A DNA stretch of 64,000 nucleotides from Tubulanus polymorphus (Eukaryota > Animalia > Nemertea), in assembly GCF_964204645.1 (NCBI RefSeq), contig NC_134025.1, positions 16,591,101-16,655,100 on the forward strand, read 5' to 3'. A program made the position numbers and the translations under genes. Below are positions 30,205 through 58,079 of the stretch, piece after piece (position 1 is the first letter of the stretch; each line of letters begins with the position of its first letter). A model generated the notes under the pieces. It worked only from the letters and a program-made list of their open reading frames with translations, had not been told where the DNA came from and did not search any database.

Positions 30205-30207
30205 TAA

Positions 30208-30429: not shown

Positions 30430-30454
30430 ATGTGTAATTTTTTTTGTTAAATAA

Positions 30455-30877: not shown

Positions 30878-30896
30878 TAATTTTTATTCTAAATAA

Positions 30897-31331: not shown

Positions 31332-31347
31332 TTTTTTAGTTATATAA

Positions 31348-32685
31348 ATGGGGTTTCCAAAAGCTTTCCAATATAATAAATCACATGAATATTATAAATA
31401 TAATACTCCAGCAATAGATTTTAGTAACATGATAATATATAAAAATTTAGTTTTACCTTCATTGATTAATTTAGAAATTTATGTTACTGAAACAAACTAT
31501 TTTATTTCTAAAATGGAAAATATATTTAATACATATGAAGTTACTTTTACTCGAGATGAATATAATATATATAAAGTAAAATCTAATATGAAATATTGGC
31601 AGAATCAATTAAATTTTGCTGTTCATTGTGCAACAGCTGGTTGTGGTGTAAGTTGGTATGATCACTTGAATAACTTAGATAAAAATTTGAAATATTCTGA
31701 TTTAAAATTCATTCATACAATATTTAGATTTCATGTATACTTTCAAATTAGAATTATATTAAATGAATTAGAATGCCCTTTACCTGGATCAAAATATCTT
31801 AAAGAATTAGATAATAATATTAATCTATCTAAGTTTTATAAAATATGTAATGAATTTAATATAAATATTAATTTCGATTTTAGAGCGCATGGTAAATTGC
31901 AAGGTGTCGGTGAACAGTATGAAATAAAAAGAATTGATTATATGCATAGAATTGGAGCTTATCATAATTATAAAATTAATAATAATAATGGTTGGGTTTA
32001 TTTTATTGAATCTTATAGTGAAGGATTTACAAAACCCGGTATACAAAGAATAAATCAATCAATTAGAACTTATTTGATATGTATTTTAGGTGCACAAGTT
32101 GAAACAAGATCACCAATAGTTGGAAATAATAGTACTTCATTTGATGCGCAGAAACAATTCAAAGTATTATTTGAAGATTCCATTCATAATGATAAAAATA
32201 GATCGATTCCAGAAAACATTGTAAGATATCAAAATTATTTAGATAAATCACATATTAGATTAAATTATTGTATAGGACCTAATCTATTAATTATTTCTAA
32301 TGATTTAGTATTAAAGATGGGAAATATAATTGGTTATAATAATCTAATTAAAACTGCAACAATAAATAATTCAATTGGATTAAATGATATAAATAAAAAG
32401 ATTATTACTGCTCCAAAATTAATGGAAGGTGAAAAAAATAAAAAACATATTCAATCAACAGAAACTAAAACTAATAATATTAAATTAAATAATGATTCCA
32501 AAATAAAAGATTACAATACTATAGAAAATGGTGCCGTACGGCACCCACACGGTGATATTAAAACCGATAAAATTCAACATGATATAATTAAACTAAATGA
32601 TGATAATAAATCCCATGAAAATACTAAATTAGCTATAACTTGTATAGGAATTGTAATCGGAGGAATATTATATTTTAAATTTTAA
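31348..32685 (+). CDS. 445-aa conserved protein with C-terminal TM anchor
   Basis: WQNQLNFAVHCATAGCG, YLICILGAQVETR; homologs in E1 and E3. Confidence 0.88.
   Translation: MGFPKAFQYNKSHEYYKYNTPAIDFSNMIIYKNLVLPSLINLEIYVTETNYFISKMENIFNTYEVTFTRDEYNIYKVKSNMKYWQNQLNFAVHCATAGCGVSWYDHLNNLDKNLKYSDLKFIHTIFRFHVYFQIRIILNELECPLPGSKYLKELDNNINLSKFYKICNEFNININFDFRAHGKLQGVGEQYEIKRIDYMHRIGAYHNYKINNNNGWVYFIESYSEGFTKPGIQRINQSIRTYLICILGAQVETRSPIVGNNSTSFDAQKQFKVLFEDSIHNDKNRSIPENIVRYQNYLDKSHIRLNYCIGPNLLIISNDLVLKMGNIIGYNNLIKTATINNSIGLNDINKKIITAPKLMEGEKNKKHIQSTETKTNNIKLNNDSKIKDYNTIENGAVRHPHGDIKTDKIQHDIIKLNDDNKSHENTKLAITCIGIVIGGILYFKF
32530..32556 (+). repeat. GC palindromic micro-insertion GGTGCCGTACGGCACCCACACGGT(GAT)
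   Basis: Absent from the E1 and E3 orthologs; adds 9 codons. Confidence 0.85.
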
Positions 32686-32701
32686 TTTTTTCATTATGTA
32701 A

Positions 32702-34140
32702 ATGGATGTAGAAGGTGGAGAAGATATTGGAATGGATCCTTTTGATGAACCTGACATAACTGATGAACAACCACCTGATTTTGATGAAACAAGTTTTAAT
32801 GATGGTAATGAACCAGAATATAACAATAATTTGAATATGCCTGATTATATTAAAAATGCTGAATCACAATTAAATCCTGAAAATTTAGACCCATATTTAG
32901 TAAAACAAGATTTAGATAATTTAAACAAAATACCTAAATTAGAATATTTAATTGAAAAATCTAATTTTAACATAAATGATGAAGACGTTGGACTTTTAGC
33001 AGATCAATTGAAATTTTTAGATAATGGTAAATGTTATTATCGTTTGAAAGGTGATTATTATATTGATATCACTTATAAAAATAATAAAAATAAAATATTA
33101 TCAGAATCAACTTTAGAAAAATTAAAACCAGATAGAATTAAAATAATAAGTAATAGTAATGAAATAACTGATGTTACACAAAAAGAAATAGATGATAATA
33201 TAGATGTATTTAAACAAAGAATTAATGAATTATTTGAAATAATCAAAAAGAAATCAGAAACAGAAACAACTTCTGAACAGAATATAACTTCCAAAAATAG
33301 TAAACTTAGATCAAATAAAGTTCCAATTGAAAAACTTTTACCGAATGGATTATTTGATGCAACAGATCAAGAATTAGAAGATTTAGATATATTTTCTGAT
33401 AAAGCAATTAGAGAAATTATTAGTATAAGACTTGCATCTGATAAAATTGCACATAATAAAAGTATAAGAGATCAAAAAATTATGTATTTGGAAAAAGAAT
33501 TAACTGATAAAAATAAAGAAATAGAACAATTAAAGTCTGATTTAGATCATCAAGTAATTGATGAAATAGAATATAGGCAAAAAGAATTACGTTTAGAAAA
33601 AGAAATTAGTAATTTAAAAGATAATTTAGAAGTACAGAAAGAAGAAATTAAATTATTATTAAAATCATATGATTATAATATTAATAGATTAAAAGTTATT
33701 TTTAAAGATTTGTTGATTAAACCAAATTCTGAAATATCATTAAAAGACAGGATGAAGTTATTATTTAAATTAGAAGGAATAACAATTCTTTCAATTCTAA
33801 CAGCTGTAACTATGTTATTTACAACAATTGGTTTAGCAATATCAAATGCTTTGAAATCTACTCCTACTCCCACTCCAATAAACCAGATAAACCTCCAGGT
33901 AATAATTCTATACAAGATAAAGTTAAGGATGGTTTAAAGAAATTAGCAAAATATTTATGGGAACTATCTAAAAAATCTGCTGCAGCATTGCCAGGAGTTA
34001 TTGCATCAATTGTTGGTTTTATATTGAAATCTGCAGGAAACATTATTAACTTTGCTGCTGAACATATTATTTTATTTTTAATTACAGTTGTAAGTGCTAT
34101 TATTTTTGGGTTAGTAAATATGATATCAAAAAATAAATAA
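32702..34140 (+). pseudogene. Large acidic/coiled-coil membrane protein, 1-bp frameshift ~33878
   Basis: CCCACTCCAATA vs CCCACTCCCAATA in E3; C-terminal TM block is out of frame. Confidence 0.82.
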
Positions 34141-34160
34141 TTAATTTTTTTGTTAAATAA

Positions 34161-35408
34161 ATGAGTGGGAGTTATATAAGTCCTTCGAAGAATCATAGAA
34201 TATCTAATGCTATTAAAGCAGAAAGATTACATCATATAATTACTCATAACCCTTCAAATATTAATCCCGATGAAACTTTATACGTGAGGATTCCTCGATT
34301 AACACAAAATACTTTTTATGTTCCAAATAGTATTTATTTATCAGCTGATATAAAAGTAATCGGTAATAATAATAATTATGTTGTTGATAATGTTGGAAGA
34401 TATTTGATTAAAAAGTTAACAATAAAGATTGGTCCAGAAACAGTTTTCTCATTAGATGATTATAATTTATTTTCACATTATAAAGATTTATGGTTAACTA
34501 AAGAAAATAGAAATAATATGATATTTCAGGGTATTCAATCAGAAAACCAAAATAAATTAAGATCTGAAGCCAATAACGCAGTAGTAAATAATGGTGTAGA
34601 TAATTTGATTAAAAGTATATATGGAAGCAAATATAAAATTCCATTAGACTTTGAATTGATAAATAATAATGCACCTTTATATAAATACGCAATTCAAGAA
34701 GATATTATATTTGAGATAACATTTGCTCCTGTAAATGAAATTGTATTATCTAGCGTTGTTAAAGATATGGGTTATAAATTATCGAATATATGTTTAGAAT
34801 ATAACACAGTAACTAATGAAAATATTGCTAGCACAATTCAAACTCAATACAATCAAGGATTTTCATTATTATATGATTATATTGATAAATTTAAAACTGT
34901 AACTATTAATGCAAATGATGAAATTATTAATGAGAATATTAACTTCCCAAGAAGATCTATTAAAGGTATATTAATATTTTTTACTATTGCAACATATTCT
35001 AATGGTGCAATAAATGTTGATAATTATTATAATCCTGAAATAACAAAAGTAGAAATAACTATCGAAGGAATAGCGAATAAAATATTTTGTCAAGGAATGA
35101 GAATGATTGATCAATGGGTAGAAATTAAAAAACATTTTATGAATGAAAAAGTAAAATCATTTGAAAATTGTAATATTAATCAAATTGATTATTATACCGG
35201 TAATAAATATGCATTATGGTTAGATTTTAGAACAACTGAAGATAATTCATTACATGGTTCTGGGAAAAAACTACAGAACACTAAAGATGGAATACAATTA
35301 TTTATGAAAAAGAATAAAGGAATCAAAAATTTTAAAATGCACATTTATATTATATCTGACGCGCAATTAAATATTGTAAATTCACAATTAGATAGTATTC
35401 AATATTAG
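34161..35408 (+). CDS. Major capsid protein (double jelly-roll), 415 aa
   Basis: Size, beta-rich pattern, VDNVGRYLIKKLTIKIG and YKIPLDF motifs resembling DJR capsids; most conserved large gene in all three elements. Confidence 0.8.
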   Translation: MSGSYISPSKNHRISNAIKAERLHHIITHNPSNINPDETLYVRIPRLTQNTFYVPNSIYLSADIKVIGNNNNYVVDNVGRYLIKKLTIKIGPETVFSLDDYNLFSHYKDLWLTKENRNNMIFQGIQSENQNKLRSEANNAVVNNGVDNLIKSIYGSKYKIPLDFELINNNAPLYKYAIQEDIIFEITFAPVNEIVLSSVVKDMGYKLSNICLEYNTVTNENIASTIQTQYNQGFSLLYDYIDKFKTVTINANDEIINENINFPRRSIKGILIFFTIATYSNGAINVDNYYNPEITKVEITIEGIANKIFCQGMRMIDQWVEIKKHFMNEKVKSFENCNINQIDYYTGNKYALWLDFRTTEDNSLHGSGKKLQNTKDGIQLFMKKNKGIKNFKMHIYIISDAQLNIVNSQLDSIQY

Positions 35409-35438
35409 AAATATAAAGTTAAAATTAAGGATATATAA

Positions 35439-36566
35439 ATGAGTGGTAAAAAAACTCCTAATACTAAAGAACAATATTTAAGAAATTTATATTACAACCC
35501 TGAGAGTTCGGTTGCTTATTCTTCTACTAAAAATATATGGCGTAAAGTAAAACAAGATAAATTAGATAAGATAATCCCACAAAATTTAGTTAAATATAAA
35601 GATATAAATGAATTTATGTTAGAACAACCAACATATACAACACATAAAAAAATTGTTAGAAAATATAAAACTCGTAAAACTATGGTAAGTTATGTAGATC
35701 AACAGTGGCAAGGAGATTTAATTGATATGAAAAATGTTAAGAAAGATAATGATGATTATTGGTGGTTATTGAATATAATTGATATTTTTAGTCGTTATGT
35801 ATGGAGCTTCCCACTTTATAGAAAAGATGCTGTACAAACATCAAATGTTTTAAGAAAATTTCTTTCGGATGATAAACTAAAACCAGAAAAAATACAATTT
35901 GATGATGGAAAAGAATTTGATAATTCACTTGTTCATGAACTCTTAGATAATCATAATATTAAATATTTTTCAACAAAATCAGATAAAAAAGCAGCAGTTG
36001 TTGAACGATTTAATAGAACATTAAGAACAAGAACGTGGAAATATTTTACAGCAAATAATACTTTTAAATGGATTGATGTTTTACCAAAATTGATAGAAGG
36101 ATATAATAATTCTTATCATTCTTCTATTGGAATGAAACCTATTGATGCTAGAAAATCTGAAAATGCTGAAATTGTTTGGAATAATTTATATGGAGCATTT
36201 CTTATAGATGATTTTGGTGAACCTAAATTTAAAGTTGGTCAAAATGTTAGAATTTCTAAGTATAAAAAGATATTTGATAAAGGATACGATCGAAATTTTA
36301 CTAGAGAAATATATAAAATAAAAAAGGTAATAACAACAAAACCATATGTCTATAAATTAGAAGATTTAGATGGTGAAGAAGTTGATGGCTACTTTTACGA
36401 AGAAGAATTAAGTTTAACTACTGAAAATCTAGAACAAGAATATAAAATTGAAAAAGTACTAAAAACAAAAACTGTTAAAAGAAAAAAATATTCTTTAGTA
36501 AAATGGGTTGGATGGCCAGATAAATTTAATGAATGGATATTATCAAGTAAAATTAAAAATATATAA
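35439..36566 (+). CDS. RVE (DDE) integrase with C-terminal chromodomain-like region
   Basis: QWQGDLIDM, IDIFSRY, IQFDDGKEF, AVVERFNRT; YKIEKVLK..LVKWVGWPDKFNEW. Confidence 0.94.
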   Translation: MSGKKTPNTKEQYLRNLYYNPESSVAYSSTKNIWRKVKQDKLDKIIPQNLVKYKDINEFMLEQPTYTTHKKIVRKYKTRKTMVSYVDQQWQGDLIDMKNVKKDNDDYWWLLNIIDIFSRYVWSFPLYRKDAVQTSNVLRKFLSDDKLKPEKIQFDDGKEFDNSLVHELLDNHNIKYFSTKSDKKAAVVERFNRTLRTRTWKYFTANNTFKWIDVLPKLIEGYNNSYHSSIGMKPIDARKSENAEIVWNNLYGAFLIDDFGEPKFKVGQNVRISKYKKIFDKGYDRNFTREIYKIKKVITTKPYVYKLEDLDGEEVDGYFYEEELSLTTENLEQEYKIEKVLKTKTVKRKKYSLVKWVGWPDKFNEWILSSKIKNI

Positions 36567-37175
36567 ATGAATAAGGAATTATTTATATTTGAGCCTCATA
36601 ATATGTTAATTTCTGGTGTAACAAATTGTGGAAAAACTTATTTTATATTAAATTTATTAGAAACTGTTTATGAAAACTATTTTGATAATATAGTATTATT
36701 TTGTCCAACATATGAATTTAATCAAACTTATGATAGAAATATTACTAGAAATAATAAATTTATTATATTAGATCCTAAAACAGTAAAAGAAAATTTAGAT
36801 AATTGTATAAAAATAGCAATTGATATTTATAAAGGATCAAATACATTATTCATTATAGATGATTGTGCTAATCTACATGATTCAAAAGTTAGAGAAAGTG
36901 AGTTATGTTATTTAGCTTTCTCTGGTAGACATTTTGGGATAACAACATGGGTTTTAAATCAGAAATATAATTCAATTGTGAAAGATTTTAGAGAGAATAT
37001 AAGATTTCTAGTTTTATTTTACAATAAAGATAGAAAATCGATGAAAAATGCACTTGAGGAAAATGATATTATTCCACATGATTTACATAATGAATATATG
37101 GATGAGTTGAAAAATATTAAAAGATCAAAATTACTATTTAGATTACAACACCCATTTAAATATGAATTTATTTAA
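36567..37175 (+). CDS. A32/FtsK-like genome packaging ATPase
   Basis: GVTNCGKT, LFIIDD, SGRHFG, NQ. Confidence 0.93.
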   Translation: MNKELFIFEPHNMLISGVTNCGKTYFILNLLETVYENYFDNIVLFCPTYEFNQTYDRNITRNNKFIILDPKTVKENLDNCIKIAIDIYKGSNTLFIIDDCANLHDSKVRESELCYLAFSGRHFGITTWVLNQKYNSIVKDFRENIRFLVLFYNKDRKSMKNALEENDIIPHDLHNEYMDELKNIKRSKLLFRLQHPFKYEFI

Positions 37176-37182
37176 ATTCAAT

Positions 37183-37430
37183 TAGTTTGTTAATCTAGTT
37201 GAATTCTAGTTATTGGTAGTTGTAACAAAAATCAAATAGATTTAACAATATTTTAACTAGCTTGTTAATCTATTTTAATTCTAGTTACATTCTAGTTGAA
37301 TTCTAGTTGTTAGTAGTTGAAACAAAAATCAATTAGATTTAACAAGAAATAAATAAAAACAACAATATTTCAACTAGCTTGTTAATCTAGTTGAATTCTA
37401 GTTACATTCTAGTTAAATTCTAGTTGTAAC
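37183..37430. repeat. Intergenic repeat rich in CTAGTT/GAATTC palindromic units
   Basis: CTAGTTGAATTCTAGTT repeated; about two longer imperfect copies. Confidence 0.8.
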
Positions 37431-37459
37431 ATCACATAATTAATTTTTTTGTTATATAA

Positions 37460-38065
37460 ATGGTAGGTGAAAAGAAAATAAAATCTAAAAATGGTAATGT
37501 TCCAATTGAAAAAACTTTAGATGATTTAGGAATAACAGAAACAAAATTAACTCCAGATGATGGTGCTTTAAATATTGTTACAACAAATAATAATTATGAA
37601 TATTATCTTTATTGTAAACATCAATTAGAAATATTAATAGCATCTGGAAAATGTAAAAATTTTGTCGGTAAAAATTTAACTTATAATGAATTAGATACAA
37701 TGAAATCAGATGAAATTATTAGATTATTTAAGATTTATGAAGCCGCGAGAACAGCTAGAATTAATGACGCGATATCAGAAAATGTAGTAAAAGGTTATAG
37801 TAAATTATGTAATTATATACTACCAATTGAAGATGAAAATAGATTATATTCCGATTTAAAAAATGATTATTTAGTTATGACTGAATTAAATAAATGGATT
37901 GGATATTTATCATTTCAATTAGGTGGATTTATGACATTATTATCAACTGGGGTTATAACATTTTCAAATATTGAAAGTAAAAATATTTCTATAATAAATG
38001 AGCGAGGTGAAAGAAGTGAAGGAATTAACTGTGAAGAAAAAACCGAGAACTCAGAAACAAATTGA
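37460..38065 (+). CDS. 201-aa conserved protein
   Basis: YEYYLYCK, LKNDYLVMTEL; homologs in E1 and E3. Confidence 0.85.
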   Translation: MVGEKKIKSKNGNVPIEKTLDDLGITETKLTPDDGALNIVTTNNNYEYYLYCKHQLEILIASGKCKNFVGKNLTYNELDTMKSDEIIRLFKIYEAARTARINDAISENVVKGYSKLCNYILPIEDENRLYSDLKNDYLVMTELNKWIGYLSFQLGGFMTLLSTGVITFSNIESKNISIINERGERSEGINCEEKTENSETN

Positions 38066-38366
38066 ATGGTCTCGGCAATTAGGAATTAAATCACAAGAAT
38101 ATAAAAAAGCTGTAAAAGAAAAAATAAGTAATAAAAATGTTAATAAAAATGGTGAAAATATTGTTATTTCTACTCCTTCTGATAGTAGAATATTTGATAA
38201 ATATTTATATTTTACAGTTGGATTTGTAATTGTATTCATTTTGATTGGGTGTAATTGGTATAAGAAATCAAATAAAATTCATGATATTAGTAATTCTGAA
38301 CCAACTGCTATCAAAAATGAAAATACTTCTGAAATTCCAAAATTGATAATAAAAAAAATGGATTAA
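37998..38366 (+). CDS. 122-aa basic single-TM protein
   Basis: RTQKQIEWSRQLG; homolog of 56774-57154. Confidence 0.82.
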   Translation: MSEVKEVKELTVKKKPRTQKQIEWSRQLGIKSQEYKKAVKEKISNKNVNKNGENIVISTPSDSRIFDKYLYFTVGFVIVFILIGCNWYKKSNKIHDISNSEPTAIKNENTSEIPKLIIKKMD

Positions 38367-38398
38367 TATTTTAGAAAAAAAGCAAAAAAAATAATTGA

Positions 38399-38465
38399 AT
38401 ATCTCACTACTTTTGTCTATCCATGCGGAGCAATTAAATTGTCCAGATAAGTCATTTCGGATTCT
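38399..38465. other. Conserved non-coding motif shared by all three elements
   Basis: ATATCTCACTAC.TTGTCTAT..GGAGC..GTCCAGATAAGTCATTTCGGAT also at 57993-58090 and (rc) 18650-18719. Confidence 0.75.
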
Positions 38466-38502
38466 AGATATTCATTATTTTTATTAATTTATTTTTTTAA
38501 AT

Positions 38503-38829
38503 TTAATCAACAATTTCTAAATCATGATGACCGTCTTCATTTTTCCCATGATATATTATTTTAAATCCTACTAAATCTTTCAATTCCTCCATACTCAATG
38601 AAACCCATTTATCAGGTAAAAACACTTTAAATTCTCGCGATGTACTAACATTACAGTAGCTTAAATTAGCTGATACTTTCTCTCCATATTTAGTTTTTAT
38701 CTTTTCTAATTTCAATATTTTATGTTCAATTTCTTTTGTAACATCAATTAACTTTTTTATTTCAAATTGTTTTTTTGCTGGTTTTATTCTGTTATTTATT
38801 GTTGCTAAGAATGCTTTTCTATCTCCCAT
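38503..38829 (-). CDS. 108-aa homolog of the ~115-aa putative OB-fold protein
   Basis: KTKYGEK..VFLPDKW..YHGKNEDGHH; starts inside the right TIR. Confidence 0.8.
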   Translation of the reverse strand: MGDRKAFLATINNRIKPAKKQFEIKKLIDVTKEIEHKILKLEKIKTKYGEKVSANLSYCNVSTSREFKVFLPDKWVSLSMEELKDLVGFKIIYHGKNEDGHHDLEIVD

Positions 38830-38914
38830 TTATTAGGGAAAAAAATTACTTGTGGTGATGAGTGGTGTCTCGCCCTCTCGCCCTCTGGTATGAAAACGCC
38901 ATCTTCTAATTACT
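38825..38914 (-). repeat. E2 right TIR (90 bp)
   Basis: Reverse complement of 22499-22588; supplies the ATG of ORF 38503-38829. Confidence 0.95.
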
Positions 38915-41634: not shown

Positions 41635-41841
41635 AGTAATAGGGGTTTAGTTGTTCTATACCAAAGGTCGAAAGGTCGAGGTCGATAAATTTTCCAAAAT
41701 GTTAAAATAACAATAATTTCTACTTGAATTAGTCGCGTACACTCCTAATTCAAGTAGAAATTATTATTATTTTAACATTTGGAAAATTTATCAACCTCAA
41801 CCTCTCAACCTTTGATATAGCACAACTAAACCCCTATTACT
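41635..41841. repeat. 207-bp terminal palindrome (left)
   Basis: Arms AGTAATAGGGG...TTGAATTAG and CTAATTCAA...CCCCTATTACT around a 12-nt loop. Confidence 0.93.
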
Positions 41842-41934
41842 CTATCTAATCACAAGTCTCATAATTTACAAGCCTCAACACGTTGAGTATTGCGTATTAC
41901 ATGTTGATTCTAGAACAACCCATCTAGAAAACTA

Positions 41935-42180
41935 CATTAGCCAATCACAGTTGAATATTCCCTATTACTCTATCCAATCACAGTTGAGTATTTTACTATT
42001 AATCTATCCAATCACAGTTGAGTATTACTCTATCCAATCACAGTTGAGTATTCCCTATTACACTAGCCAATCACAAGCCTCATAATTTACAAGTCTCAAC
42101 ACGCAGCTGGGTTTCCCCCACTGTTGAGTAGTATAAATAGGCGGGACTCACACGTGGTAGGACTCACACGTGGTGGGACG
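41935..42180 (+). promoter_or_regulatory. Putative host RNA Pol II promoter for pPolB
   Basis: CCAAT at 41941, 41974, 42008, 42034, 42067; TATAAAT at 42132; GGCGGGA at 42140; two CACGTG in GGACTCACACGTGGT repeats. Confidence 0.6.
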
Positions 42181-42198
42181 CGTTGAGAGGTAAGTGTT

Positions 42199-46266: not shown

Positions 46267-46294
46267 TCAATTTCAATAAAAATGTGTATAATAA

Positions 46295-46636
46295 ATGGAG
46301 AGTAAACAAGTACACAGTGAATTCTTAGATAGAATTAAAGATACTTCAAGCGTCAAATCTGTAGATTATAAATTTAAAAAACTAACTGAGTTAACAATTC
46401 ACAAGAAATATTTAATTACTAACATTGAAACAATTACTAATAAATATGGAGATAAATTAGTAATTCATTTAGAATATGAAGGATTAAAAGGAAATAAATA
46501 TAAATTCAGAACTTATTTACCAGATAGATTTCATAGATTATCAAGTGAAGATTTAGAAGAATTATGTTCTGGTGATTTCTATTTCATATACAAAGGTAAG
46601 AATGAAAAAGGGCACCATGAAATAGATTTCGAATAA
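46295..46636 (+). CDS. 113-aa putative OB-fold protein
   Basis: Homologs in E1 and E2; TAAATG start. Confidence 0.78.
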   Translation: MESKQVHSEFLDRIKDTSSVKSVDYKFKKLTELTIHKKYLITNIETITNKYGDKLVIHLEYEGLKGNKYKFRTYLPDRFHRLSSEDLEELCSGDFYFIYKGKNEKGHHEIDFE

Positions 46637-46653
46637 GAAAATATGTAAAATAA

Positions 46654-47415: not shown

Positions 47416-47432
47416 TTTTTTTCACTATATAA

Positions 47433-47774
47433 ATGAATATAACTGTTGGCCCGAGTATATGTTTTGGGTTTGATTTTAAACATGGTAAAGAAATGAGAAT
47501 TAAACTAAATGATGTAATTACTGATATAAAAAGTAAATTATTTAACAATGCGTCAATGATTGATAAAGAAAAGTATAATATAGAAAAAGTAATTGATTTA
47601 ATTAAATCACCTTTAGAATATTATGAATTAAATGAAGATGGAATTATTGAAGATATTAAAAACATATTATCCAAAATATATGATAATCATAAAACTAGTA
47701 ATGAAATAAATGTTGAAATAATCATAAATAAGTTAACTAAATATTTTGAAGATAGTAATTTTTTTGATAAATAA
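47433..47774 (+). CDS. Hypothetical 113-aa protein
   Basis: Homolog of 29851-30204. Confidence 0.8.
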   Translation: MNITVGPSICFGFDFKHGKEMRIKLNDVITDIKSKLFNNASMIDKEKYNIEKVIDLIKSPLEYYELNEDGIIEDIKNILSKIYDNHKTSNEINVEIIINKLTKYFEDSNFFDK

Positions 47775-47996
47775 ATGAGTGATAATAAGTGGATAATAAC
47801 TGGATTATATAATGGCGCATTACTATCAGTTGGAACGGTTGGTTATTCAATGGTATTAAAAAAAGTATTCAAAATGGGAAGTGTTAATGTTGATAGATTT
47901 GATATAAATGATATTTTAAAATTAACATTAGCAGTTACTTTATCTAATTTAACTATTGATTATTTAGAAAAACAAAAATATATTCCTCCCATATAA
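47775..47996 (+). CDS. 73-aa small hydrophobic protein
   Basis: Conserved in all three elements. Confidence 0.88.
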   Translation: MSDNKWIITGLYNGALLSVGTVGYSMVLKKVFKMGSVNVDRFDINDILKLTLAVTLSNLTIDYLEKQKYIPPI

Positions 47997-48020
47997 ATGC
48001 ATAATTTTTTTGCTAAATAA

Positions 48021-48443
48021 ATGGCTTCTGCAATTATAACTATTATAGGATCGGCAATTGTTAACGCTTTAGCATTTACTGGTGGTGGATATTTATTTAA
48101 ACATATTGATAAAAATAGTTCATTAGGAGAACAAAGAAGACATAACTTAGCGTTAGAGAAATACAATAAAGCTGCAGAAGAATATAGAGAAAAACGACAA
48201 AACTATATGGATTACATCAATAAAGAATTATATGATCAGAAGATTTCACATAGAGATTTTCAATCAGTTGATGATGCAATGAGTTTATATAACGCAGTAA
48301 CAAATAAAGAAAAATTACATCTATACACACCTAAATTATCAGATTATTATACCCCAAGTAAAGAACAACAGAAATATGAAATAATTTGGATTTTAGGTGG
48401 AACAGTTATTGTTATATTTGTAGCATATAAGTTTACTAATTAG
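48021..48443 (+). CDS. 140-aa membrane-associated protein
   Basis: Conserved in all three elements. Confidence 0.88.
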   Translation: MASAIITIIGSAIVNALAFTGGGYLFKHIDKNSSLGEQRRHNLALEKYNKAAEEYREKRQNYMDYINKELYDQKISHRDFQSVDDAMSLYNAVTNKEKLHLYTPKLSDYYTPSKEQQKYEIIWILGGTVIVIFVAYKFTN

Positions 48444-48461
48444 TAATTTTTTTCTAAATAA

Positions 48462-48896
48462 ATGGAAGATAAAGTTGATAGTATTGATATTATTCCTCAT
48501 GATATAAATAAAACTAAATTAAAAACATATTTAGAAAAACAAATATTAGAATTTGAAAGTGACTTAAAGATAAAAAAGAAAAAATATTTAAAAAGTAAAA
48601 TTATATATTATTTGATTATAAGTGGTTCGGTTACAATTAGTTCTGTAATAACATTTCTAGCAATATTCAGCCCATTAACACCTTTAGCTATATCAATTGG
48701 TGTATTAGGATTAAGTTCAAGTGTTTTAACTGGTATAAGTTCAAAATTAAATATAAAAAGTAATAAAGAAAAAATAAAATCTAATATAAAAGAAATTAAT
48801 AAATTAAAGAACACACTAGATTATATAATAAGTTTAAATGGCCATATAACAGTTGAAGAACAAGATAAATTATTAAAAGAATTAATAAATTATTAA
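48462..48896 (+). CDS. 144-aa two-TM protein
   Basis: Conserved in all three elements. Confidence 0.88.
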   Translation: MEDKVDSIDIIPHDINKTKLKTYLEKQILEFESDLKIKKKKYLKSKIIYYLIISGSVTISSVITFLAIFSPLTPLAISIGVLGLSSSVLTGISSKLNIKSNKEKIKSNIKEINKLKNTLDYIISLNGHITVEEQDKLLKELINY

Positions 48897-48913
48897 TTTT
48901 TTTAATTATATAA

Positions 48914-50302
48914 ATGGTAGATAGTTTTCCAAAAGCTTTCCAATACAATAAATCAATTAAATATAATATTCCAGCAATAGATTTTAATAAAGATATTACA
49001 TATAGAAATGAAGTTTTAGATTCATTAACTAATTTAGAAATTTATGTTACTGAAACTAATAATTTTAATGCAAAGATGGAAAATATATTTCATATATATT
49101 TAATTAATTTTTAAAAATTGAAAGATGAAAAACAATGGTTATTAAAATCTAATATGAAGTATTGGCAGAATCAATTAAATTTTGCTGTTTATTGTGCAAC
49201 AACAGGTTGTGGAATTAGTTGGAATGATCATTTGAATAATTCTAAATATAAACTAATTCAAAGTTTATTTAGATTTCATACATACTTTCAAATCAGAATA
49301 ATATTAAATGAATTAGTGTGCGCTTTACCAGGATCTAGGTATTTCAAAGAATTAGATAATAATATTAATTTATCTAAGTTTTATAAGATTTGCAATGAAT
49401 TTAATATAGATATAAATAATTCTGATTTTAGAACAAAAATTGGAACAATAAGATCACTTCCATGCCCTAGAAAGATTGCAGAATATTGTGCACTTCCCAT
49501 ACCATCTAATAGTTTTTATAATATCTATAATAATAAATTAGGTTATGGTAAAATAGAAACAAAGGATTTAGAAACATTAAATTTCAATAAATTACCGAAA
49601 TTTTACGATAATTTAAAACAAGAAAACAATAATGGTTGGGTTTATTTCATTTTAGAAAATAGTGAAGGTTTTACTAAATCAGGTATAGAAAGAATAAATC
49701 AATCTATTAGAATTTATTTGATATGTATTTTAGGCGCTCAAGTTGAAACAAGATCACCGATAATTGGAAATTTAAATACATCATTCGATACACAAAAACA
49801 ATTTAAAGTTTTATTTGAAGATTCCATACATAATGATAAAAATAGATCGATTCCAGAAAACATTATAAGATATCAAAATTATTTAGATAAATCACATATT
49901 AGATTAAATTATTGTATAGGTCCTAATCTATTAATTATTTCTAATGATTTAGTATTAAAGATGGGAAACATAATTGGTTATAATAATCTAATTAAAACCG
50001 CAACAATAAATAATTCATTTGGATTGAATGATATAAATAAAAAGATTATCACTGCTCCAAAATTAATGGAAGGTGAAAAAAATAAAAAACATATTCAATC
50101 AACAGAAACTAAAACTAAGAATATTAAATTAAATAATGATTCTAAAATAAAAGATTACAATACATCAGAAGATATAAAAACTGATAAAATTCAACATGAT
50201 ATAATTAAACTAAATGACGATAATAAATCCCATGAAAATACTAAATTAGCTATAACTTGTATAGGAATTGTAATCGGAGGAATATTATATTTTAAATTTT
50301 AA
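48914..50302 (+). pseudogene. ~445-aa conserved protein with one in-frame TAA (49112-49114)
   Basis: 66-aa and 394-aa ORFs are in the same frame and align to 31348-32685. Confidence 0.82.
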
Positions 50303-50318
50303 TTTTTTTATTATGTAA

Positions 50319-52034
50319 ATGGATGTAGAAGGTGGAGAAGATTATGAAATGGGAGAAATGGGAAATAATAATGAAGGATATATTGATGATGATTATAATG
50401 ATGCAGAAACTAATATTGATAATGATGATGAATCAGCATATAATACTAATTTAGGTGAAGATGATGATTATGATGATGATTATGATGATGATCCCGAATT
50501 ACGTGAAAAATTAAATAAATATTTAAAAGCTCCTGAAATTGGTAGAATTTCAACTAGAAGAGAAAGAAAAGAATTTATGGAACTATTAGAAAAACAACAA
50601 GAAAAATATCCTGATAAACCTATGGAATTATATAAAATGAAATCTAGAGTAACAGATACAATTGTTAACGAATTATTACCAACAGTTGTAATAGATGAAA
50701 TTGATTCAGAAGGTGTTGTAGAACAAATTTTTAAAGATGACCCATATTTCACAAATAATTTAGAATTTAAAAATGATTCATGGTATTATAATGTTAATTT
50801 AAATAACACAATTGTATCAATTCAATTATCTAAAATGGGTCAAGAAAATATTTATGAACCTGAAATGCGAGCAACATCTACAATTGAAGGTTCAAAAGGT
50901 GGTAGAGAATTTCTCAGAATTATATGGAATGCACTCGATAGAGTAAATGAAGAAGAACCAATTCCTAATATTGATATAAACAAATATTCACCATTTAAAA
51001 ATCCAAATCCAAATCCTACTGATTTTGATCCAGAAATGGAAGAGAATAGAAATCGATTAGATAAATTGAGATCTTCAACACCCGAAACATCGAGAAGAGA
51101 CACTCAACCAATTGATAATTATTCAAGTCAATTACAATTAGAAAAACAAATTGATAGATTAAGAGATTCAGAAGAACTGATGAATAGTATATCAGATACA
51201 TCTGGTTCTGAAACTGGAATAAATCGACTGCAATATTTACTAGAAAAAGGATTTCTTAATTTAACTGATGCAGAATTAGAAACATTTCCTGAACAAATAC
51301 GTAGAGAAATTAAAGGTATACAAGTATCAGCTGATGAAATTGCTAATATTAAGATGAGATTTTCTAAAATAACCATGTTAGAAAAAGAATTAGTTAATGT
51401 AGATGAAGAATTAAAACAATTAGAATTAAATAGAGATCATCAAGTAGTTTATGAAGCTGATTATGAAAGCAGAAAGTTAGCTTTAGTAAAAGAAATAGAT
51501 GATTTAGAATATAACATAAAATTACAAAAAGAAGAAAGAGATATATTATTAAAATCATATGATCTTAATCATATTAAAAAATTAAAAGTTATTTTTAAAG
51601 ATTTGTTGATAAAACCAGATTCTGAAATATCATTAAAAGACAGAATAAAGTTATTATTTAAGTTAGAAGGAATAACAATTCTTTCAATTCTAACAGCTGT
51701 AACTATGTTATTTACAACAATTGGTTTAGCAATATCAAATGCTTTAAAATCTACTCCTACTCCCACTCCCAATAAACCAGATAAACCTCCAGGTAATAAT
51801 TCTATACAAGATAAAGTTAAGGATGGTTTAAAAAAATTAGCAAAATATTTATGGGAACTATCAAAGAAATCTGCTGCAGCATTGCCAGGAGTTATTGCAT
51901 CAATTGTTGGTTTTATATTGAAATCTGCAGGAAACATTCTTAACTTTGCTGCTGAACATATTATTTTATTTTTAATTACAGTTGTAAGTGCTATTATTTT
52001 TGGGTTAGTAAATATGATATCAAAAAATAAATAA
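50319..52034 (+). CDS. 571-aa acidic/coiled-coil protein with C-terminal TM segments
   Basis: Variable N-terminal part, conserved hydrophobic C-terminus. Confidence 0.88.
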   Translation: MDVEGGEDYEMGEMGNNNEGYIDDDYNDAETNIDNDDESAYNTNLGEDDDYDDDYDDDPELREKLNKYLKAPEIGRISTRRERKEFMELLEKQQEKYPDKPMELYKMKSRVTDTIVNELLPTVVIDEIDSEGVVEQIFKDDPYFTNNLEFKNDSWYYNVNLNNTIVSIQLSKMGQENIYEPEMRATSTIEGSKGGREFLRIIWNALDRVNEEEPIPNIDINKYSPFKNPNPNPTDFDPEMEENRNRLDKLRSSTPETSRRDTQPIDNYSSQLQLEKQIDRLRDSEELMNSISDTSGSETGINRLQYLLEKGFLNLTDAELETFPEQIRREIKGIQVSADEIANIKMRFSKITMLEKELVNVDEELKQLELNRDHQVVYEADYESRKLALVKEIDDLEYNIKLQKEERDILLKSYDLNHIKKLKVIFKDLLIKPDSEISLKDRIKLLFKLEGITILSILTAVTMLFTTIGLAISNALKSTPTPTPNKPDKPPGNNSIQDKVKDGLKKLAKYLWELSKKSAAALPGVIASIVGFILKSAGNILNFAAEHIILFLITVVSAIIFGLVNMISKNK

Positions 52035-52054
52035 TTAATTTTTTTGTTAAATAA

Positions 52055-53302
52055 ATGAGTGGGAGTTATATCAATCCTTCTAAGAATCATAGAATATCTA
52101 ATGCTATTAAAGCAGAAAGATCACATCATATAATTACTCATAACCCTTCAAATATTAATCCCGATGAAACTTCATACGTTAGAATCCCTCGATTAACACA
52201 AAATACTTTTTATGTTCCAAATAGTATTTATTTATCAGCCGATATAAAAGTAATCGGTAATAATAATAATTATGTCGTTGATAATGTTGGAAGATATTTG
52301 ATTAAAAAATTAACTATAAAGATTGGTCCGGAAACAGTTTTCTCATTAGATGATTATAATTTATTTATGCATTATAAAGATTTATGGTTAACTAAAGAAA
52401 ATAGAAATAATATGATATTTCAAGGAATTCAATCAGAAAACCAAAATAAATTAAGATCAGAAGCTAATAGCGCAATATTAACAAATGATGTAGATAAATT
52501 GATAAAAAGTATATATGGAAGCAAATATAAAATTCCATTAGACTTTGAATTGATAAATAATAATGCACCTTTATATAAATACGCAATTCAAGAAGATATT
52601 ATATTCGAAATAACATTTGCTCCTGTAAATGAAATTGTATTATCTAGCGTTAATAAAGATATGAGTTATAAATTATCGAATATATGTTTAGAAAATGATA
52701 CAGTAACTGATGAAAATATTTCAAGTATAATTCAAACTCAATACAATCAAGGATTTTCATTATTATATGATTATATTGATAAATTTAAAACTGTAACTAT
52801 TAATGCAAATGATGAAATAATTAATGAGAATATTAACTTTCCTAGAAGATCTATTAAAGGTATATTAATATTTTTTACCATTGGAACGTATACTAATGGC
52901 GCAATAAATGTTGACAATTATTATAATCCTGAAATATCAAAAGTAGAAATAACTATTGAAGGTATAGCGAATAAAATATTTTGTCAAGGAATGAGAATGA
53001 TAGATCAATGGGTAGAAATTAGAAAACATTTTATGAATGAAAAAGTAAAATCATCTGAAAATTGTAACATTAATCAAATTGATTATTATACCGGTAATAA
53101 ATATGCATTATGGTTAGATTTTAGAACAACTGAAGATAACTTATTACATGGTTCTGGAAAAAAACTACAGAACACTAAAGATGGAATACAATTATTCATG
53201 AAAAAGAAAAAAGGAAGCTTAAATTTTAAAATGCATATTTATATTATATCTGACGCGCAATTAAATATTGTAAATTCACAATTAGATAGTGTTATGTATT
53301 AA
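52055..53302 (+). CDS. Major capsid protein (double jelly-roll), 415 aa
   Basis: Highly similar to 34161-35408. Confidence 0.8.
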   Translation: MSGSYINPSKNHRISNAIKAERSHHIITHNPSNINPDETSYVRIPRLTQNTFYVPNSIYLSADIKVIGNNNNYVVDNVGRYLIKKLTIKIGPETVFSLDDYNLFMHYKDLWLTKENRNNMIFQGIQSENQNKLRSEANSAILTNDVDKLIKSIYGSKYKIPLDFELINNNAPLYKYAIQEDIIFEITFAPVNEIVLSSVNKDMSYKLSNICLENDTVTDENISSIIQTQYNQGFSLLYDYIDKFKTVTINANDEIINENINFPRRSIKGILIFFTIGTYTNGAINVDNYYNPEISKVEITIEGIANKIFCQGMRMIDQWVEIRKHFMNEKVKSSENCNINQIDYYTGNKYALWLDFRTTEDNLLHGSGKKLQNTKDGIQLFMKKKKGSLNFKMHIYIISDAQLNIVNSQLDSVMY

Positions 53303-53334
53303 AATTTTAACTTTAATAAAAAATCTTATATTAA

Positions 53335-54462
53335 ATGGAAGGTGGAATATATGAAATACAAACTCCAAGTGAAATGATATCAGATATATATTATATATTA
53401 CCTTATGATGAATACAGTAAGTATTTTGGAGATTACTTTAATCAATTCAAATATAGAATAAGTAAAATAAAAGATAATATTGAATATAAAATAGAAGATA
53501 ATATTGAAACTAAAATAGAAGATAAGAATGATATTGAATATAAAATAGAAGATGTAACAGCATCTACATCTTATAATATACCCTCTACATATGATATTGA
53601 ATCAAAAAAGACAAATGAAAAATATTGTGACGTATGTAAACAGTATAAAAGTTATAAGAATTGGGCAACTCATCTTAATTCACTCAAGCATGAGAAAAAT
53701 AAGAATAAGATTTTAAATGAATTGAATAATGATAGTGAAATTGATAATGATAATGTTAAAGAAGATAAATATTGTGAAGAATGTGATAAATATATAAGTC
53801 GTAGTAATTTTTCAAAACATAAATTAACACAGATACATTTGGATAATATAGAAAGAAATATATGTGAAAAGTGTAATGTTGTTGTATTACCTAAAGATAG
53901 AATTAAACATGATAATTCTTTTGAACATACAATAAAAGCTGCTGATTTAAATTACCTTTATAGAGTACCAACTGTATTTTTTGATATCGAAAATAATGAT
54001 CATAGGAAATTATATAGATCAATTTTTATCGATTATGTAAGAAATAATCCAAAACAAGTATTATCAGATATTAAAATTGGTCGGACGCTTATAAAAATTG
54101 ATCTAAATAATTATTGGGGTATATATTATTTCATCAAATTTAAAAGGAGAGATTTTTTAACAGAATTGAAAAAAGTTGCTGCTAATGATAATATAAGTGA
54201 TAACTTTGATGAAATAATTCAATACTATAGTTATGAAGATTTTTCACAGGATGTTATAAATAAAATAAGAAATGAAGCAAAAAATGAATATAAAAATATA
54301 AGTGAAGACAAATTAAACCAATATATTTATTTAACTTATGAATTCTTTGTTAAGGGTTTGAATGGTAATGGTTATCATTTTAAACTATTAGGTGAAAGAA
54401 GATCACAAGAATTAAGAGTTGCATGGCGCAAATTGTTTTTAGAATTAGAATCAGAAAAGTAA
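53335..54462 (+). CDS. Multi-zinc-finger protein, C-terminus weakly VLTF-3-like
   Basis: CDVC..HLNSLKH, CEEC..HKLTQIH, CEKC..HDNSFEH; LTYEFF..FKLL..QEL..AWRKL. Confidence 0.7.
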   Translation: MEGGIYEIQTPSEMISDIYYILPYDEYSKYFGDYFNQFKYRISKIKDNIEYKIEDNIETKIEDKNDIEYKIEDVTASTSYNIPSTYDIESKKTNEKYCDVCKQYKSYKNWATHLNSLKHEKNKNKILNELNNDSEIDNDNVKEDKYCEECDKYISRSNFSKHKLTQIHLDNIERNICEKCNVVVLPKDRIKHDNSFEHTIKAADLNYLYRVPTVFFDIENNDHRKLYRSIFIDYVRNNPKQVLSDIKIGRTLIKIDLNNYWGIYYFIKFKRRDFLTELKKVAANDNISDNFDEIIQYYSYEDFSQDVINKIRNEAKNEYKNISEDKLNQYIYLTYEFFVKGLNGNGYHFKLLGERRSQELRVAWRKLFLELESEK

Positions 54463-54489
54463 TTTAAAATATGAATATAATACCCTTTG

Positions 54490-55015
54490 TGTCTTTATTG
54501 TCTTTAGTAGTTTAGTACTTTTAGTACATAAAGAATAAATCTTTATTTTATTAGTAGTGAATAAAATTATTTTTAAAACTACTAAACTACTAAAGACAAT
54601 AAAGACATAAATATATATATATAACACTGTTTCAATAATTATATTTATTCATCTGATGGATTTTATATATTACTGTTTCAATAATTAAATCTATTTATCA
54701 CACATATTTATTATATATATCATAGATTTACCATTTATAAAAATTATTTATATATTTATTCTTTATGTACTAAAATTATAAAAGATAATAAACACATAAC
54801 AAAACACATATAGATGTAATAAATATCATAGATTTATTTATCTCACATATTTATTATATATATTTAATTCAGTAATAATAAATCTATATGTGTTTGTTAT
54901 GTCTTTATTATCTTTAGTAGTTTAGTAGTTCTATTTTATTTTATTCACTACTAATAAAATAAAGATTTATTCTATATGTACTAAAAGTACTAAACTACTA
55001 AAGATAATAAAGACA
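54490..55015. repeat. Nested inverted-repeat (fold-back) region between convergent gene arrays
   Basis: 54490-54567 is the rc of 54938-55015 (2 mismatches); 54577-54609 is the rc of 54897-54930. Confidence 0.85.
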
Positions 55016-55074
55016 TTAGGGGGAGGTATATAATACATATCTAATACATATCTAATACATAGGTATACAAATAG

Positions 55075-55689
55075 TTATTTTATAAATTTATATTCATATG
55101 GAAATTGTAGTCTCAGAAGTAATTTGGAACCTTTATTATTCTTTAATTTATTCATATATTCATCGTGTAATTCAGTAGGTATAATTTGATTTTCTTCCAA
55201 AGATTGTTGCATAGATTTTCTATCTTTGTTGTAGAATAAAACTAGAAATCTTATATTCTCTCTAAAATCTTTCACAATTGAATTATATTTCTGATTTAAA
55301 ACCCAAGTTGTTATCCCAAAATGTCTACCAGAGAAAGCTAAATAACATAACTCACTTTCTCTAATTTTAGAATCATGTAAATTTGCGCAATCATCGATAA
55401 TAAATAATGTATTAGATCCTTTATAAATATCTAATGCAATTTTTATACAATTATCTAAATTATCTTTTACTGTTTTAGAATTTAATATAATAAACTTTTT
55501 ATCTTTAAAAACTATATCTCTATTATACGTTTCATTCATTTCATAAGTTGGGCAGAATAATATTATATTATCGAAATGATTTTTATAAATAGTTTCTAAT
55601 AAATCTAATATGAAGTGTGTTTTACCACAATTTGTAAATCCAGTAACTAACATATTATGTGGTTCAAATATAAACAAATCTTTATTCAT
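55075..55689 (-). CDS. A32-like packaging ATPase
   Basis: GFTNCGKT, LFIIDD, SGRH. Confidence 0.93.
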   Translation of the reverse strand: MNKDLFIFEPHNMLVTGFTNCGKTHFILDLLETIYKNHFDNIILFCPTYEMNETYNRDIVFKDKKFIILNSKTVKDNLDNCIKIALDIYKGSNTLFIIDDCANLHDSKIRESELCYLAFSGRHFGITTWVLNQKYNSIVKDFRENIRFLVLFYNKDRKSMQQSLEENQIIPTELHDEYMNKLKNNKGSKLLLRLQFPYEYKFIK

Positions 55690-56770
55690 TTATTCTTTTA
55701 ATTTTACTAGATAAAATCCATTCATTAAATTTATCATCATATCCTTTATATTTCACCAGAGAATATTTCTTACCGCGTAATGTTTTAGTTTTCAATACCT
55801 TTTCTATTTTGTATTCTATTTCATCTGGATTTGGTACTAATGATAATTCTTGTTCATAAAAATAACCTAATATTTCTTCATCTTTTAAATCAAACAATTT
55901 ATAAACAAATGGTTTAGTTAATATTATCTTTTTAATCTTGAATATTTCTTCAGTAAAATTAGGGGTATAACCTTTATAAAATGTTTTTCTATATTTAGAA
56001 ATTCTAACATGTTGTCCTATTTTAAATTTAGGTTCTCCAAAATCATGTGTAACAAATGCTCCATATAAATTATTCCAAACTATTTCTGAATTATCTTCTT
56101 TTCTAGCTTGTATAGGTTTCATATTTATAGAACTATGTTTAGAATTATTATAACCTTTCACTAAATCATCTAACACATCGATATATTTATCTGTTTCATT
56201 AGCAGTAAAATATTTCCACATTCTAGTTTTCAATGTTTTATTAAATCTTTCTATAACAGATGCTTTTTTATCTGAGTGTGTTGAAAAATATTCTACATCG
56301 TTATCAGACAATAGTTTATTGAAATGTTTGTTATAAAATTCTTTACCTTCATCAAATTGTATCTTATCTGGAATAGCTTCTTTAAATATAGATTTAAAAG
56401 CATTTGTTACTTCTATTCCAGTTTTATTTTTGATTGGAATTGACCATGCGTATCTACTGAATATGTCTATAACATTTAGTATCCAAAAATATCCTTTGTT
56501 ATATTCTTCTAAGTTTTTCATATCAATTAAATCAGCTTGCCATTGTTGGTCAATATATGAAACCATTACTTTTCTTGTTAAATATTTTCTATCCATCTTT
56601 TTATGAATTTGATATGTGGGTTGATTTTGTAACCATGATTTTAATTCACTATATTTTATTTTTTCTTTATCAGATTTAATTTTATCCCATAATTCCGAAA
56701 CACTTGAATATGAAACTTCACTTTCTGGGTTATAATATAAATCTCTTAAATATTGTTCTTTTTTCATCAT
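55682..56770 (-). CDS. RVE integrase with chromodomain-like C-terminus
   Basis: QWQADLIDM, IQFDEGKEF, SVIERFNKT. Confidence 0.94.
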   Translation of the reverse strand: MMKKEQYLRDLYYNPESEVSYSSVSELWDKIKSDKEKIKYSELKSWLQNQPTYQIHKKMDRKYLTRKVMVSYIDQQWQADLIDMKNLEEYNKGYFWILNVIDIFSRYAWSIPIKNKTGIEVTNAFKSIFKEAIPDKIQFDEGKEFYNKHFNKLLSDNDVEYFSTHSDKKASVIERFNKTLKTRMWKYFTANETDKYIDVLDDLVKGYNNSKHSSINMKPIQARKEDNSEIVWNNLYGAFVTHDFGEPKFKIGQHVRISKYRKTFYKGYTPNFTEEIFKIKKIILTKPFVYKLFDLKDEEILGYFYEQELSLVPNPDEIEYKIEKVLKTKTLRGKKYSLVKYKGYDDKFNEWILSSKIKRINE

Positions 56771-56773
56771 ATT

Positions 56774-57154
56774 TTAATCCATTAATAATATTTTAGATTT
56801 ATTTTCATTTGATTTATTTTCTGGTATGATAGGTTTATCATCGGAATCATCTTTATCATCAGAATTGAATTTTGATTTATATATTACACCGGAGAATATA
56901 ATAATTGTGATTAACCCAATTGTAATATATAAGTAATTATTTCTTCCACTATTAGAAGAATTAGATGGATTATTATTTGAATCAATACCACCGTGTGGGT
57001 GCCGTACGGCATCATCAGATAATTTCTGTGATTCATTTATATCAGTTAATTTCTTTTTCTTAGCTTTTTTTAATTCTGATGATCTTTTACCTAATTCTCT
57101 TGCCCATTTAATTTGTTTCTCGGATCTAGCCTTTTTCTTAACGCTATCACTCAT
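56774..57154 (-). CDS. 126-aa basic single-TM protein
   Basis: RSEKQIKWARELG; carries the in-frame AVRHPHG palindrome insert. Confidence 0.82.
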   Translation of the reverse strand: MSDSVKKKARSEKQIKWARELGKRSSELKKAKKKKLTDINESQKLSDDAVRHPHGGIDSNNNPSNSSNSGRNNYLYITIGLITIIIFSGVIYKSKFNSDDKDDSDDKPIIPENKSNENKSKILLMD

Positions 57155-57749
57155 TTATTTTAGTTAATTTTTGTTCTGATTCATTTTCTGTTTCGACGTT
57201 TGGTTGTAGTACATCTGTTTCGTTCTTACCTGATTTATATTCCATAGGCTTGATATTCGAAAATGTTATAACTCCAGTAGAAATCAATGTCATAACCGAT
57301 CCTAATTGAAATGAAGCATAACCGACCCATTTTTGTAATTCAGTCATAACTAAATAGTCATTTTTCAAATCATTATATAATTTATTTTCATCATCAATTG
57401 GTATTAACTGGTTACATAACTTAGAATAACATTTGACAATACCATTCGAAATAGAATCATTTATTTTAGATAATCTTGCCTCTTCATAAATCTTAAAATA
57501 TTTTATTACTTTATCGGGTTTCATAGCATCTAATTCTTGAAAAGTTATTATTTTTCCCAAGAAATCCTTAGATTTCCCTCCAGCAATTAATAATTCAAGA
57601 TGGTCCTTACAATATAAATAGTATTCATAATCAATATTACAATTAATATTATTTTCAATTTTGATTGGAATATCCTTATTATCACTAATGCCTAAATCAT
57701 CTAATGTTTTTTCAATGTTGGTATTATTCTTATTAGATTTCTTTGACAT
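57147..57749 (-). CDS. 200-aa conserved protein
   Basis: Homologs in E1 and E2. Confidence 0.85.
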   Translation of the reverse strand: MSKKSNKNNTNIEKTLDDLGISDNKDIPIKIENNINCNIDYEYYLYCKDHLELLIAGGKSKDFLGKIITFQELDAMKPDKVIKYFKIYEEARLSKINDSISNGIVKCYSKLCNQLIPIDDENKLYNDLKNDYLVMTELQKWVGYASFQLGSVMTLISTGVITFSNIKPMEYKSGKNETDVLQPNVETENESEQKLTKINE

Positions 57750-58079
57750 TTATATAGGAGAAAAAAGCAAGAAAAATATTATAAGTATTATAAAATGATA
57801 CTAGCTAGTTAAAGCTAAAGAATTCTAGTATTGACTACTGATACTAGCTATTTGAATTTAAAGAATTTCTATTTGAATCTATTCAAAATATAAAGTATTC
57901 TCTTTTTGAAAAGAAAATATTAAAAATATAATAGAATTCACTAGCAGTTGAAGTTATTGTTTTTTTATTATATTTTATTTAAATTAGGATCTAATATCTC
58001 ACTACTATTGTCTATCACTGTGTGGGTGCTGTTTATGGCACCATCTATTAGGAGCAGTAACTATAACTGTCCAGATAAG

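Follow-up and report, generated by a model that had tools for sequence, protein, structure and literature searches.

A 27-bp GC-rich palindromic unit inserted at three sites in Polinton DNA of Tubulanus polymorphus

How does a GC-rich palindrome of fewer than 30 bp come to sit at three unrelated places in AT-rich viral-type DNA, and does it move as a unit of its own? The question is raised by a 64,000-nt stretch of the nemertean Tubulanus polymorphus (RefSeq assembly GCF_964204645.1, contig NC_134025.1, positions 16,591,101 to 16,655,100; hereafter, the window), of which three Polinton elements (E1, E2, and E3) make up 51,564 bases (81%). A sequence-only reading had placed the GC-rich unit at three non-homologous sites, and this was confirmed: two of the Polintons carry the unit, the net insert being 27 bp at two sites and 29 bp at the third. 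We are confident that the insertion is real and that the unit is discrete, and we regard the mechanism of its movement as the weak part of the account. The features on which the argument relies are as follows.

32530..32553 (+): copy 1, a perfect 16-nt palindrome plus an 8-nt tail; net insert of 27 bp, adding nine codons in frame
56990..57013 (-): copy 2, net insert of 27 bp, in frame; the first arm and the 3' flanking triplet each have one change
58017..58042 (-): copy 3, decayed; net insert of 29 bp, non-coding
31348..32685 (+): 445-aa Polinton gene hosting copy 1; the insert is absent from its E1 and E3 paralogues
56774..57154 (-): 126-aa gene hosting copy 2; the orthologue in E1 lacks the insert and is frameshifted
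58080..58757 (-): 225-aa endonuclease VII/HNH-like gene (phrog_1035, E 6e-16)
1..21910 (no strand given): Polinton E1, decayed, starting upstream of the window; no insert at sites 1-3
22499..38914 (+): Polinton E2, with 93-bp terminal inverted repeats and a 6-bp target duplication (GCTGTG)
41635..63686 (no strand given): Polinton E3, with 4,627-bp terminal inverted repeats and a 6-bp target duplication (AATACG)

Three filled sites and their empty counterparts

When the 14-mer core of the unit was searched for in the window with up to two mismatches allowed, two matches were found, each with no more than one mismatch, and none of 100 shuffled sequences gave two or more. A fuzzy search of the window recovered the third copy and gave no fourth. 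Moreover, the 16 paralogous segment pairs that we compared yielded 61 rows of indels of at least 8 nt, four of which are the unit (site 1 being counted twice), and none of the remaining rows of at least 10 nt is above 42% GC.

That the sites are empty in sister elements, as had been claimed, holds for all three. Site 1 corresponds to a 27-bp gap in both paralogous segments (E1 and E3), and the nine residues are missing from all eight aligned database homologues of the 445-aa protein (five of its 272 matches, together with three cluster members). Because these residues are lacking in the E3 paralogue and in the eight homologues alike, the filled state is the derived one. Site 2 is matched by a 27-bp gap in the E1 orthologue; here, the E2 paralogue aligns too poorly to count, and no homologue of the 126-aa protein was scored among 30 database candidates. 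Site 3 is matched by a 29-bp gap in E1. E3 is the carrier of copies 2 and 3 and is itself empty at site 1.

The in-frame insertion into the 445-aa and 126-aa genes was likewise borne out, with 27 bp net in each case, and we noticed that copies 1 and 2 are translated in the same reading frame, both in a variable linker that precedes a C-terminal hydrophobic segment. The third copy is indeed non-coding, has a length (29 bp) that is no multiple of three, and is located 38 bp downstream of the endonuclease VII/HNH-like gene. As a separate observation, one homologue of the 445-aa protein (P0249) has an extra Arg/Ala-rich stretch relative to its cluster mate (P0250) in the linker equivalent to window positions 32480-32530, and this could be a separate GC-rich in-frame insert in a different host.

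Junctions, decay, and the carrier Polintons

The unit consists of a palindrome of 16 nt and, behind it, a short tail, the last letters of which are the same as the start of the unit (GGTG at both ends), so that a second, weaker hairpin is possible. The perfect palindrome attributed to all copies is found in copy 1 only: copy 2 departs from it at one position of the first arm, and in copy 3 all three CpG have become CpA and two additional bases are present. A search against Rfam gave eight weak matches to microRNA families, none of which attains the gathering score or falls at the inserts.

With regard to the junctions, the sequence-only reading had proposed flanking GAT or near-GAT triplets and a 24-bp insert with a 3-bp duplication. 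The triplets in fact read AAT/GAT at site 1, GAT/GGT at site 2, and GAT/GAT at site 3, and the duplication is therefore exact at one of the three sites (site 3). At site 1, a GAT duplication would call for one additional change: the homologues of the 445-aa protein have Asn ahead of this site, in agreement with the filled copy and its AAT, so that AT is all that the junctions must have in common. The simplest arrangement shared by the sites is one of two, a unit of 27 bp set between A and T or a 25-bp unit with a 2-bp duplication, and these fit as well as the GAT duplication or better. Such an A|T register fits all three junctions; in Polinton DNA, AT makes up 0.15 of positions and RATA 0.029. 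It is unlikely that the shared AT/RATA context arose by chance, though the register was picked post hoc, with the data already seen. In this register, the 16-nt hairpin begins straight after the first T and stops 10 nt short of the 3' end.

Copy 3 has four changes in 24 nt, as compared with differences at nine of 4,627 sites (0.19%) between the terminal repeats of E3. It is very unlikely that these changes arose after E3 integrated, unless the repeats were later homogenised. Since copy 3 is too decayed for the age of E3, insert 3 likely predates the integration, having been acquired earlier and having travelled in a replicating Polinton lineage, to judge from the divergence of the repeats. CpG transitions between the elements are frequent (12/33 CpG columns, versus 7.6% overall, and 9/21 CpG columns), and E2 and E3 are CpG-depleted (observed/expected ratios of 0.56 and 0.52, respectively). 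We infer that copy 2, which is 1 kb from copy 3 and has its CpGs intact, is the younger of the two.

As regards the carriers, E2 and E3 both have inverted ends beginning with AGT and 6-bp target duplications, as is described for Mavericks (PMC8097293). The likeness to Polinton/Maverick elements extends to the pPolB, integrase, and ATPase genes, with E2 encoding pPolB, an integrase, an A32 ATPase, and a 415-aa likely major capsid protein. The differences are a whole pPolB gene in each terminal repeat of E3 and a putative intein in E2, and the Maverick description consulted (PMC8097293) mentions no tiny passenger hairpin. The E3 repeats (41635-46261 and 59060-63686) each contain a complete gene for a 1,354-1,355-aa pPolB, giving the element two polymerase genes; these were assigned through 74% DNA identity to the E2 pPolB region, and there is no Pfam DNA_pol_B_2 match. 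In the E2 pPolB (24157-27654), the conserved YFD/TD motif is split by an insertion of about 355 aa that matches inteins and LAGLIDADG weakly, and this insertion is absent from the E3 polymerases.

All three Polintons have a GC content of 24-26%, versus 36-40% in the surrounding host-like DNA. E1 is broken up by a BEL/Pao long terminal repeat (LTR) element (646-7515) and 1.9 kb of host-like DNA, the BEL/Pao retrotransposon being young (LTR differences at 2/426 sites), nested inside the E1 polymerase gene, and of a type that points to an animal host. The structural modules of E2 and E3 are 87-91% identical, as against about 74% for the polymerase regions, and this contrast in sequence identity suggests an exchange of modules by recombination between Polinton families. 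More specifically, E2 29031-35422 shares structural-gene blocks (87-91%) with 46648-53316 in E3 and 9212-14602 in E1, and their termini differ. At their outer ends, over 140-210 bp, the termini of E3 and E1 (41635-41841 and 21768-21910) form long fold-backs that start with AGTAAT, end with ATTACT, and resemble two joined ends. A repeated AT-rich fold-back sequence is also found between the convergent gene blocks of E3 (54487-55016). Read depth over 22400-38400, taken from the raw-read run among the four runs mapped there, ranges from about 170 to 1,070 across 30 bins, which is consistent with a multi-copy Polinton family.

Matches outside the window

The unit had been thought specific to this virus family, and for this we found no support: because Polintons fill most of the window, finding all three copies in Polinton DNA is expected with p=0.52, and the sole plausible match elsewhere (L021, below) is in non-Polinton DNA. 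Exact 5-residue peptides of the unit were not found in 240 Polinton-type proteins (120 of the 272 matches for the 445-aa protein and 120 of the 922 for the capsid protein). Three scans of IMG/VR for related Polinton DNA confirmed none, and none of the 215 fetched loci encodes relatives of six window proteins. In pattern scans of IMG/VR for the unit, a 21-mer gave no match, a 16-mer gave seven (the tail being absent from all), a 15-mer gave 30 (20/24 at best), and a degenerate 19-mer gave one, at 66% GC. With a 16-mer from the tail there were at least 120 matches; among those listed, the palindrome arm was in none and the setting was mostly one recurring phage-like coding context. In GTDB (185,579 prokaryote genomes), a 22-mer had six single matches at 66-72% GC, with at most 22/24 bases shared, and plasmid records returned 12 weak matches (E 1-4), none of which covers 80% of the query. 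We take the matches in IMG/VR, GTDB, and the plasmid records to be chance-like or coding.

A metagenome scan with an 18-mer gave 51 matches, 50 of which have a GC content of at least 0.47 and were treated as chance. L021, a metagenome sequence with a GC content of 0.41, shares 23/24 bases with copy 2 as well as the same ends, and its match is flanked by two TACA words in non-coding, animal-like, non-Polinton DNA. L021 also has a tandem array with a 26-bp repeat (at about 570-1570) and, about 0.7 and 1.5 kb from the match, two hammerhead-like motifs of minimal form (46-72 and 2306-2334). As for the literature, none of three 14-mers of the unit was found in the paper texts searched, and the titles and abstracts returned by topic searches describe no such element in Polintons, though the unit may still belong to a repeat catalogued in Dfam or Repbase.

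Known small elements and how the unit may move

Tiny mobile palindromes are already known from organelles and bacteria, and the analogy with mitochondrial GC clusters and Rickettsia palindromic elements (RPE) drawn by the sequence-only reading is a fair one. The GC clusters of yeast mitochondrial DNA, at 30-80 bp and about 120 per genome, are short GC-rich palindromes in AT-rich DNA that are polymorphic for presence and sometimes lie within genes, altering the size of the product (PMC4464245). The unit shares these traits, though the likeness is one of description; at 27 bp, and in Polintons beside a BEL/Pao element, it is apparently nuclear rather than mitochondrial. REP and RPE are 20-40-bp hairpins with a short tail and occur in frame in genes, and an HUH (Y1) transposase is presumed to move the GTAG-tagged REPs (PMC3733652, PMC3116915). 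In contrast to these bacterial elements, the unit lacks both of their tags, GTAG and CGTC (GTGG precedes a 14-nt palindrome on the lower strand), no RAYT gene is found in the window, and the single 22-mer matches in GTDB form no multi-copy family. By analogy, the unit would work like GC clusters and REP/RPE, but it has the defining features of neither family. The small dispersed repeats of Nostoc (cyanobacteria), attributed to Elhai et al. 2008, are reportedly very small mobile repeats of a size similar to the unit.

Our favoured explanation, which we put forward tentatively and at less than even confidence, is that the unit is a non-coding, non-autonomous mobile hairpin that is copied in single-stranded form, the enzyme being an HUH transposase of the Helitron type whose gene is at another place in the host genome. 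Here, the HUH enzyme would recognise the hairpin and insert the unit between A and T with no duplication, a step that is a guess among near-equal rivals. Copies landing in frame within tolerant linkers, or between genes, would then escape removal by selection, and the survivors would be inherited as the Polinton replicates and reintegrates. This last step is well supported, because the decay of copy 3 exceeds what the age of its host element allows. In favour of an HUH enzyme, the ends of the unit are identical at all three sites, and L021 has the same ends and 23/24 matching bases outside Polinton DNA. Helitron1 has a hairpin 10-12 nt from its 3' end and inserts between A and T (PMC5148889), and hairpin recognition is a general trait of HUH transposons (PMC5148889, PMC10288648). 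In the A|T register, the hairpin of the unit is 10 nt from the 3' end, and all three sites fit the no-duplication rule of Helitron1 (with one change at site 2), which is equivalent to an AT duplication. Moreover, the position of the hairpin straight after the first T resembles the 5' ends of FoHeli1/2 (PMC5148889).

Several points weigh against this explanation. Read on the strand that places the hairpin 10 nt before the 3' end, the unit starts with TG instead of TC (the opposite strand does start with TC, but has no spacer after the hairpin), and it ends with GTGA (sites 1 and 3) or GTGG (site 2), not CTRR; since it fails both end tests, we do not file it as a Helitron. Its length is also about one-thirtieth of the 830 bp of the smallest non-autonomous Helitron described in PMC5148889. 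In 51 of the 52 window open reading frames (ORFs), those covered by the Pfam scan, there was no HUH, RepHel, or Y1 domain, and the two larger host flanks have no reading frame above 92 codons. The hairpin is no more stable than same-letter shuffles (z -0.1 to -1.6 in four folds), the A|T register is indistinguishable from a 2-bp AT duplication, site 2 requires one change whatever the register, and there are only three copies to judge from. Outside the window, L021 is plausible as a lead only, being one unconfirmed match without an empty site, and a second metagenome sequence of 61% GC (L047) likewise attains 23/24, so chance can reach that level. As regards Helitron2/Helentron, there is only a 4-nt CACC/GGTG match with no convincing asymmetric inverted repeat, and the target is RAT-A, not T-rich (TT). 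For Replitrons, which are placed in plants, algae, and protists, the counterpart of the short direct terminal repeats would be the GGTG at both ends, which is only 4 nt long.

Ranking close behind the HUH explanation, and possible though somewhat doubtful, is a retrotransposed stub, derived either from a Penelope-like element (its palindromic end) or from a long or short interspersed element (LINE/SINE; its 3' hairpin) and set down by target-primed reverse transcription at AT/GAT microhomology. Small Penelope-derived repeats of insects have a similar palindrome-plus-tail motif. The pLTRs of Penelope-like elements have palindromes at the inverted 5' junction (of 18 and 38 bp; an overlap of 15 bp), and their tail measures about 31 bp (PMC3846280, PMC8557442); the unit resembles them in its terminal palindrome and short tail, and can be read as an 8-nt inverted arm plus 16 nt. 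Minimal hammerhead-like motifs, of which L021 has two, are of a type found in pLTRs (PMC4209133), but these do not adjoin the match, and there is none in the window. The unit also has no pLTR body and no long duplication, the published ones being 8-10 bp, with none in one case (PMC3846280), and its core was not found in the searched part of the PMC8557442 supplement or in two PMC4209133 files. Above all, the fixed ends at all three sites speak against retrotransposition, which usually gives variable truncation, and the single GC-rich match of the degenerate 19-mer in IMG/VR adds nothing for it. Doubtful, to a greater degree, is that the unit is confined to Polintons and spreads through their extrachromosomal strand-displacement replication and recombination between co-resident elements, with the Polinton's own endonuclease VII/HNH-like protein perhaps cutting hairpins. 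All three copies are inside Polintons, copy 3 is probably older than the integration and is close to the endonuclease gene, and the contrast between structural and polymerase identities of E2 and E3 suggests recombination between families. However, this location is expected at p=0.52, the 240 Polinton-type proteins hold no peptide of the unit, L021 is non-Polinton, and E1 has the same endonuclease gene yet is empty at sites 1-3.

It is unlikely that a cut-and-paste (DDE) transposon, one that duplicates 2-3 bp of its target, left the unit behind as a solo end or a footprint. Solo terminal repeats of mariner elements are known, and an AT or GAT repeat flanks the copies (exactly so, as GAT/GAT, at site 3), but the ends of the unit are direct (GGTG...GGTG) and not inverted, as those of a terminal-inverted-repeat miniature element would be. 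The Polinton integrase is no source of it either, since it makes 6-bp duplications (PMC8097293), and with no such duplication at the inserts a product of this enzyme was ruled out. Also ruled out were an intron, there being no AG end on either strand, and the Ssn/NTS system, given that the Pfam scan found no GIY-YIG domain in the scanned window ORFs. An adapter, vector, or assembly error, or mere chance, is highly improbable. The unit is short, GC-rich, and palindromic, and among the rows listed for reads over site 1 (12 of 335 for indels, 15 of 223 for joints) its insert does not appear, a result we otherwise regard as neutral. Conversely, the CpG decay in copy 3 is not expected of an adapter, the copies have exact ends and a junction context in common, no shuffle equalled the count of the core, and the plasmid matches are weak, with none covering 80% of the query.

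The unit is likely to be among the smallest mobile DNA units, and an enzyme of some other element probably moves it. We consider it doubtful, though worth stating, that the same fixed-length 27-bp element, as one of the smallest mobile DNAs of any animal nuclear genome, is common to distant animals, the window host and the source of L021, and is carried between integrations in Polintons. If true, it would add nine residues to viral proteins, would be a nuclear counterpart of the bacterial REP/RPE elements, and would point to an unrecognised eukaryotic HUH or GIY-YIG activity on minimal hairpins. Few of the very small palindromic elements (GC clusters, REP/RPE, and small dispersed repeats) have an established mode of movement. 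A 27-bp unit with fixed ends and clean filled and empty sites, spread through many Polinton copies of one genome, would supply numerous insertion sites that can be dated and aligned, at which the target rule, the length limit, and the partner enzyme would become directly testable. Elements of a 27-bp scale are below the usual limits of repeat finders, and comparable tiny elements may therefore be widely missed. For the Polintons themselves, the unit shows lineages that take up in-frame passengers and pass them on.

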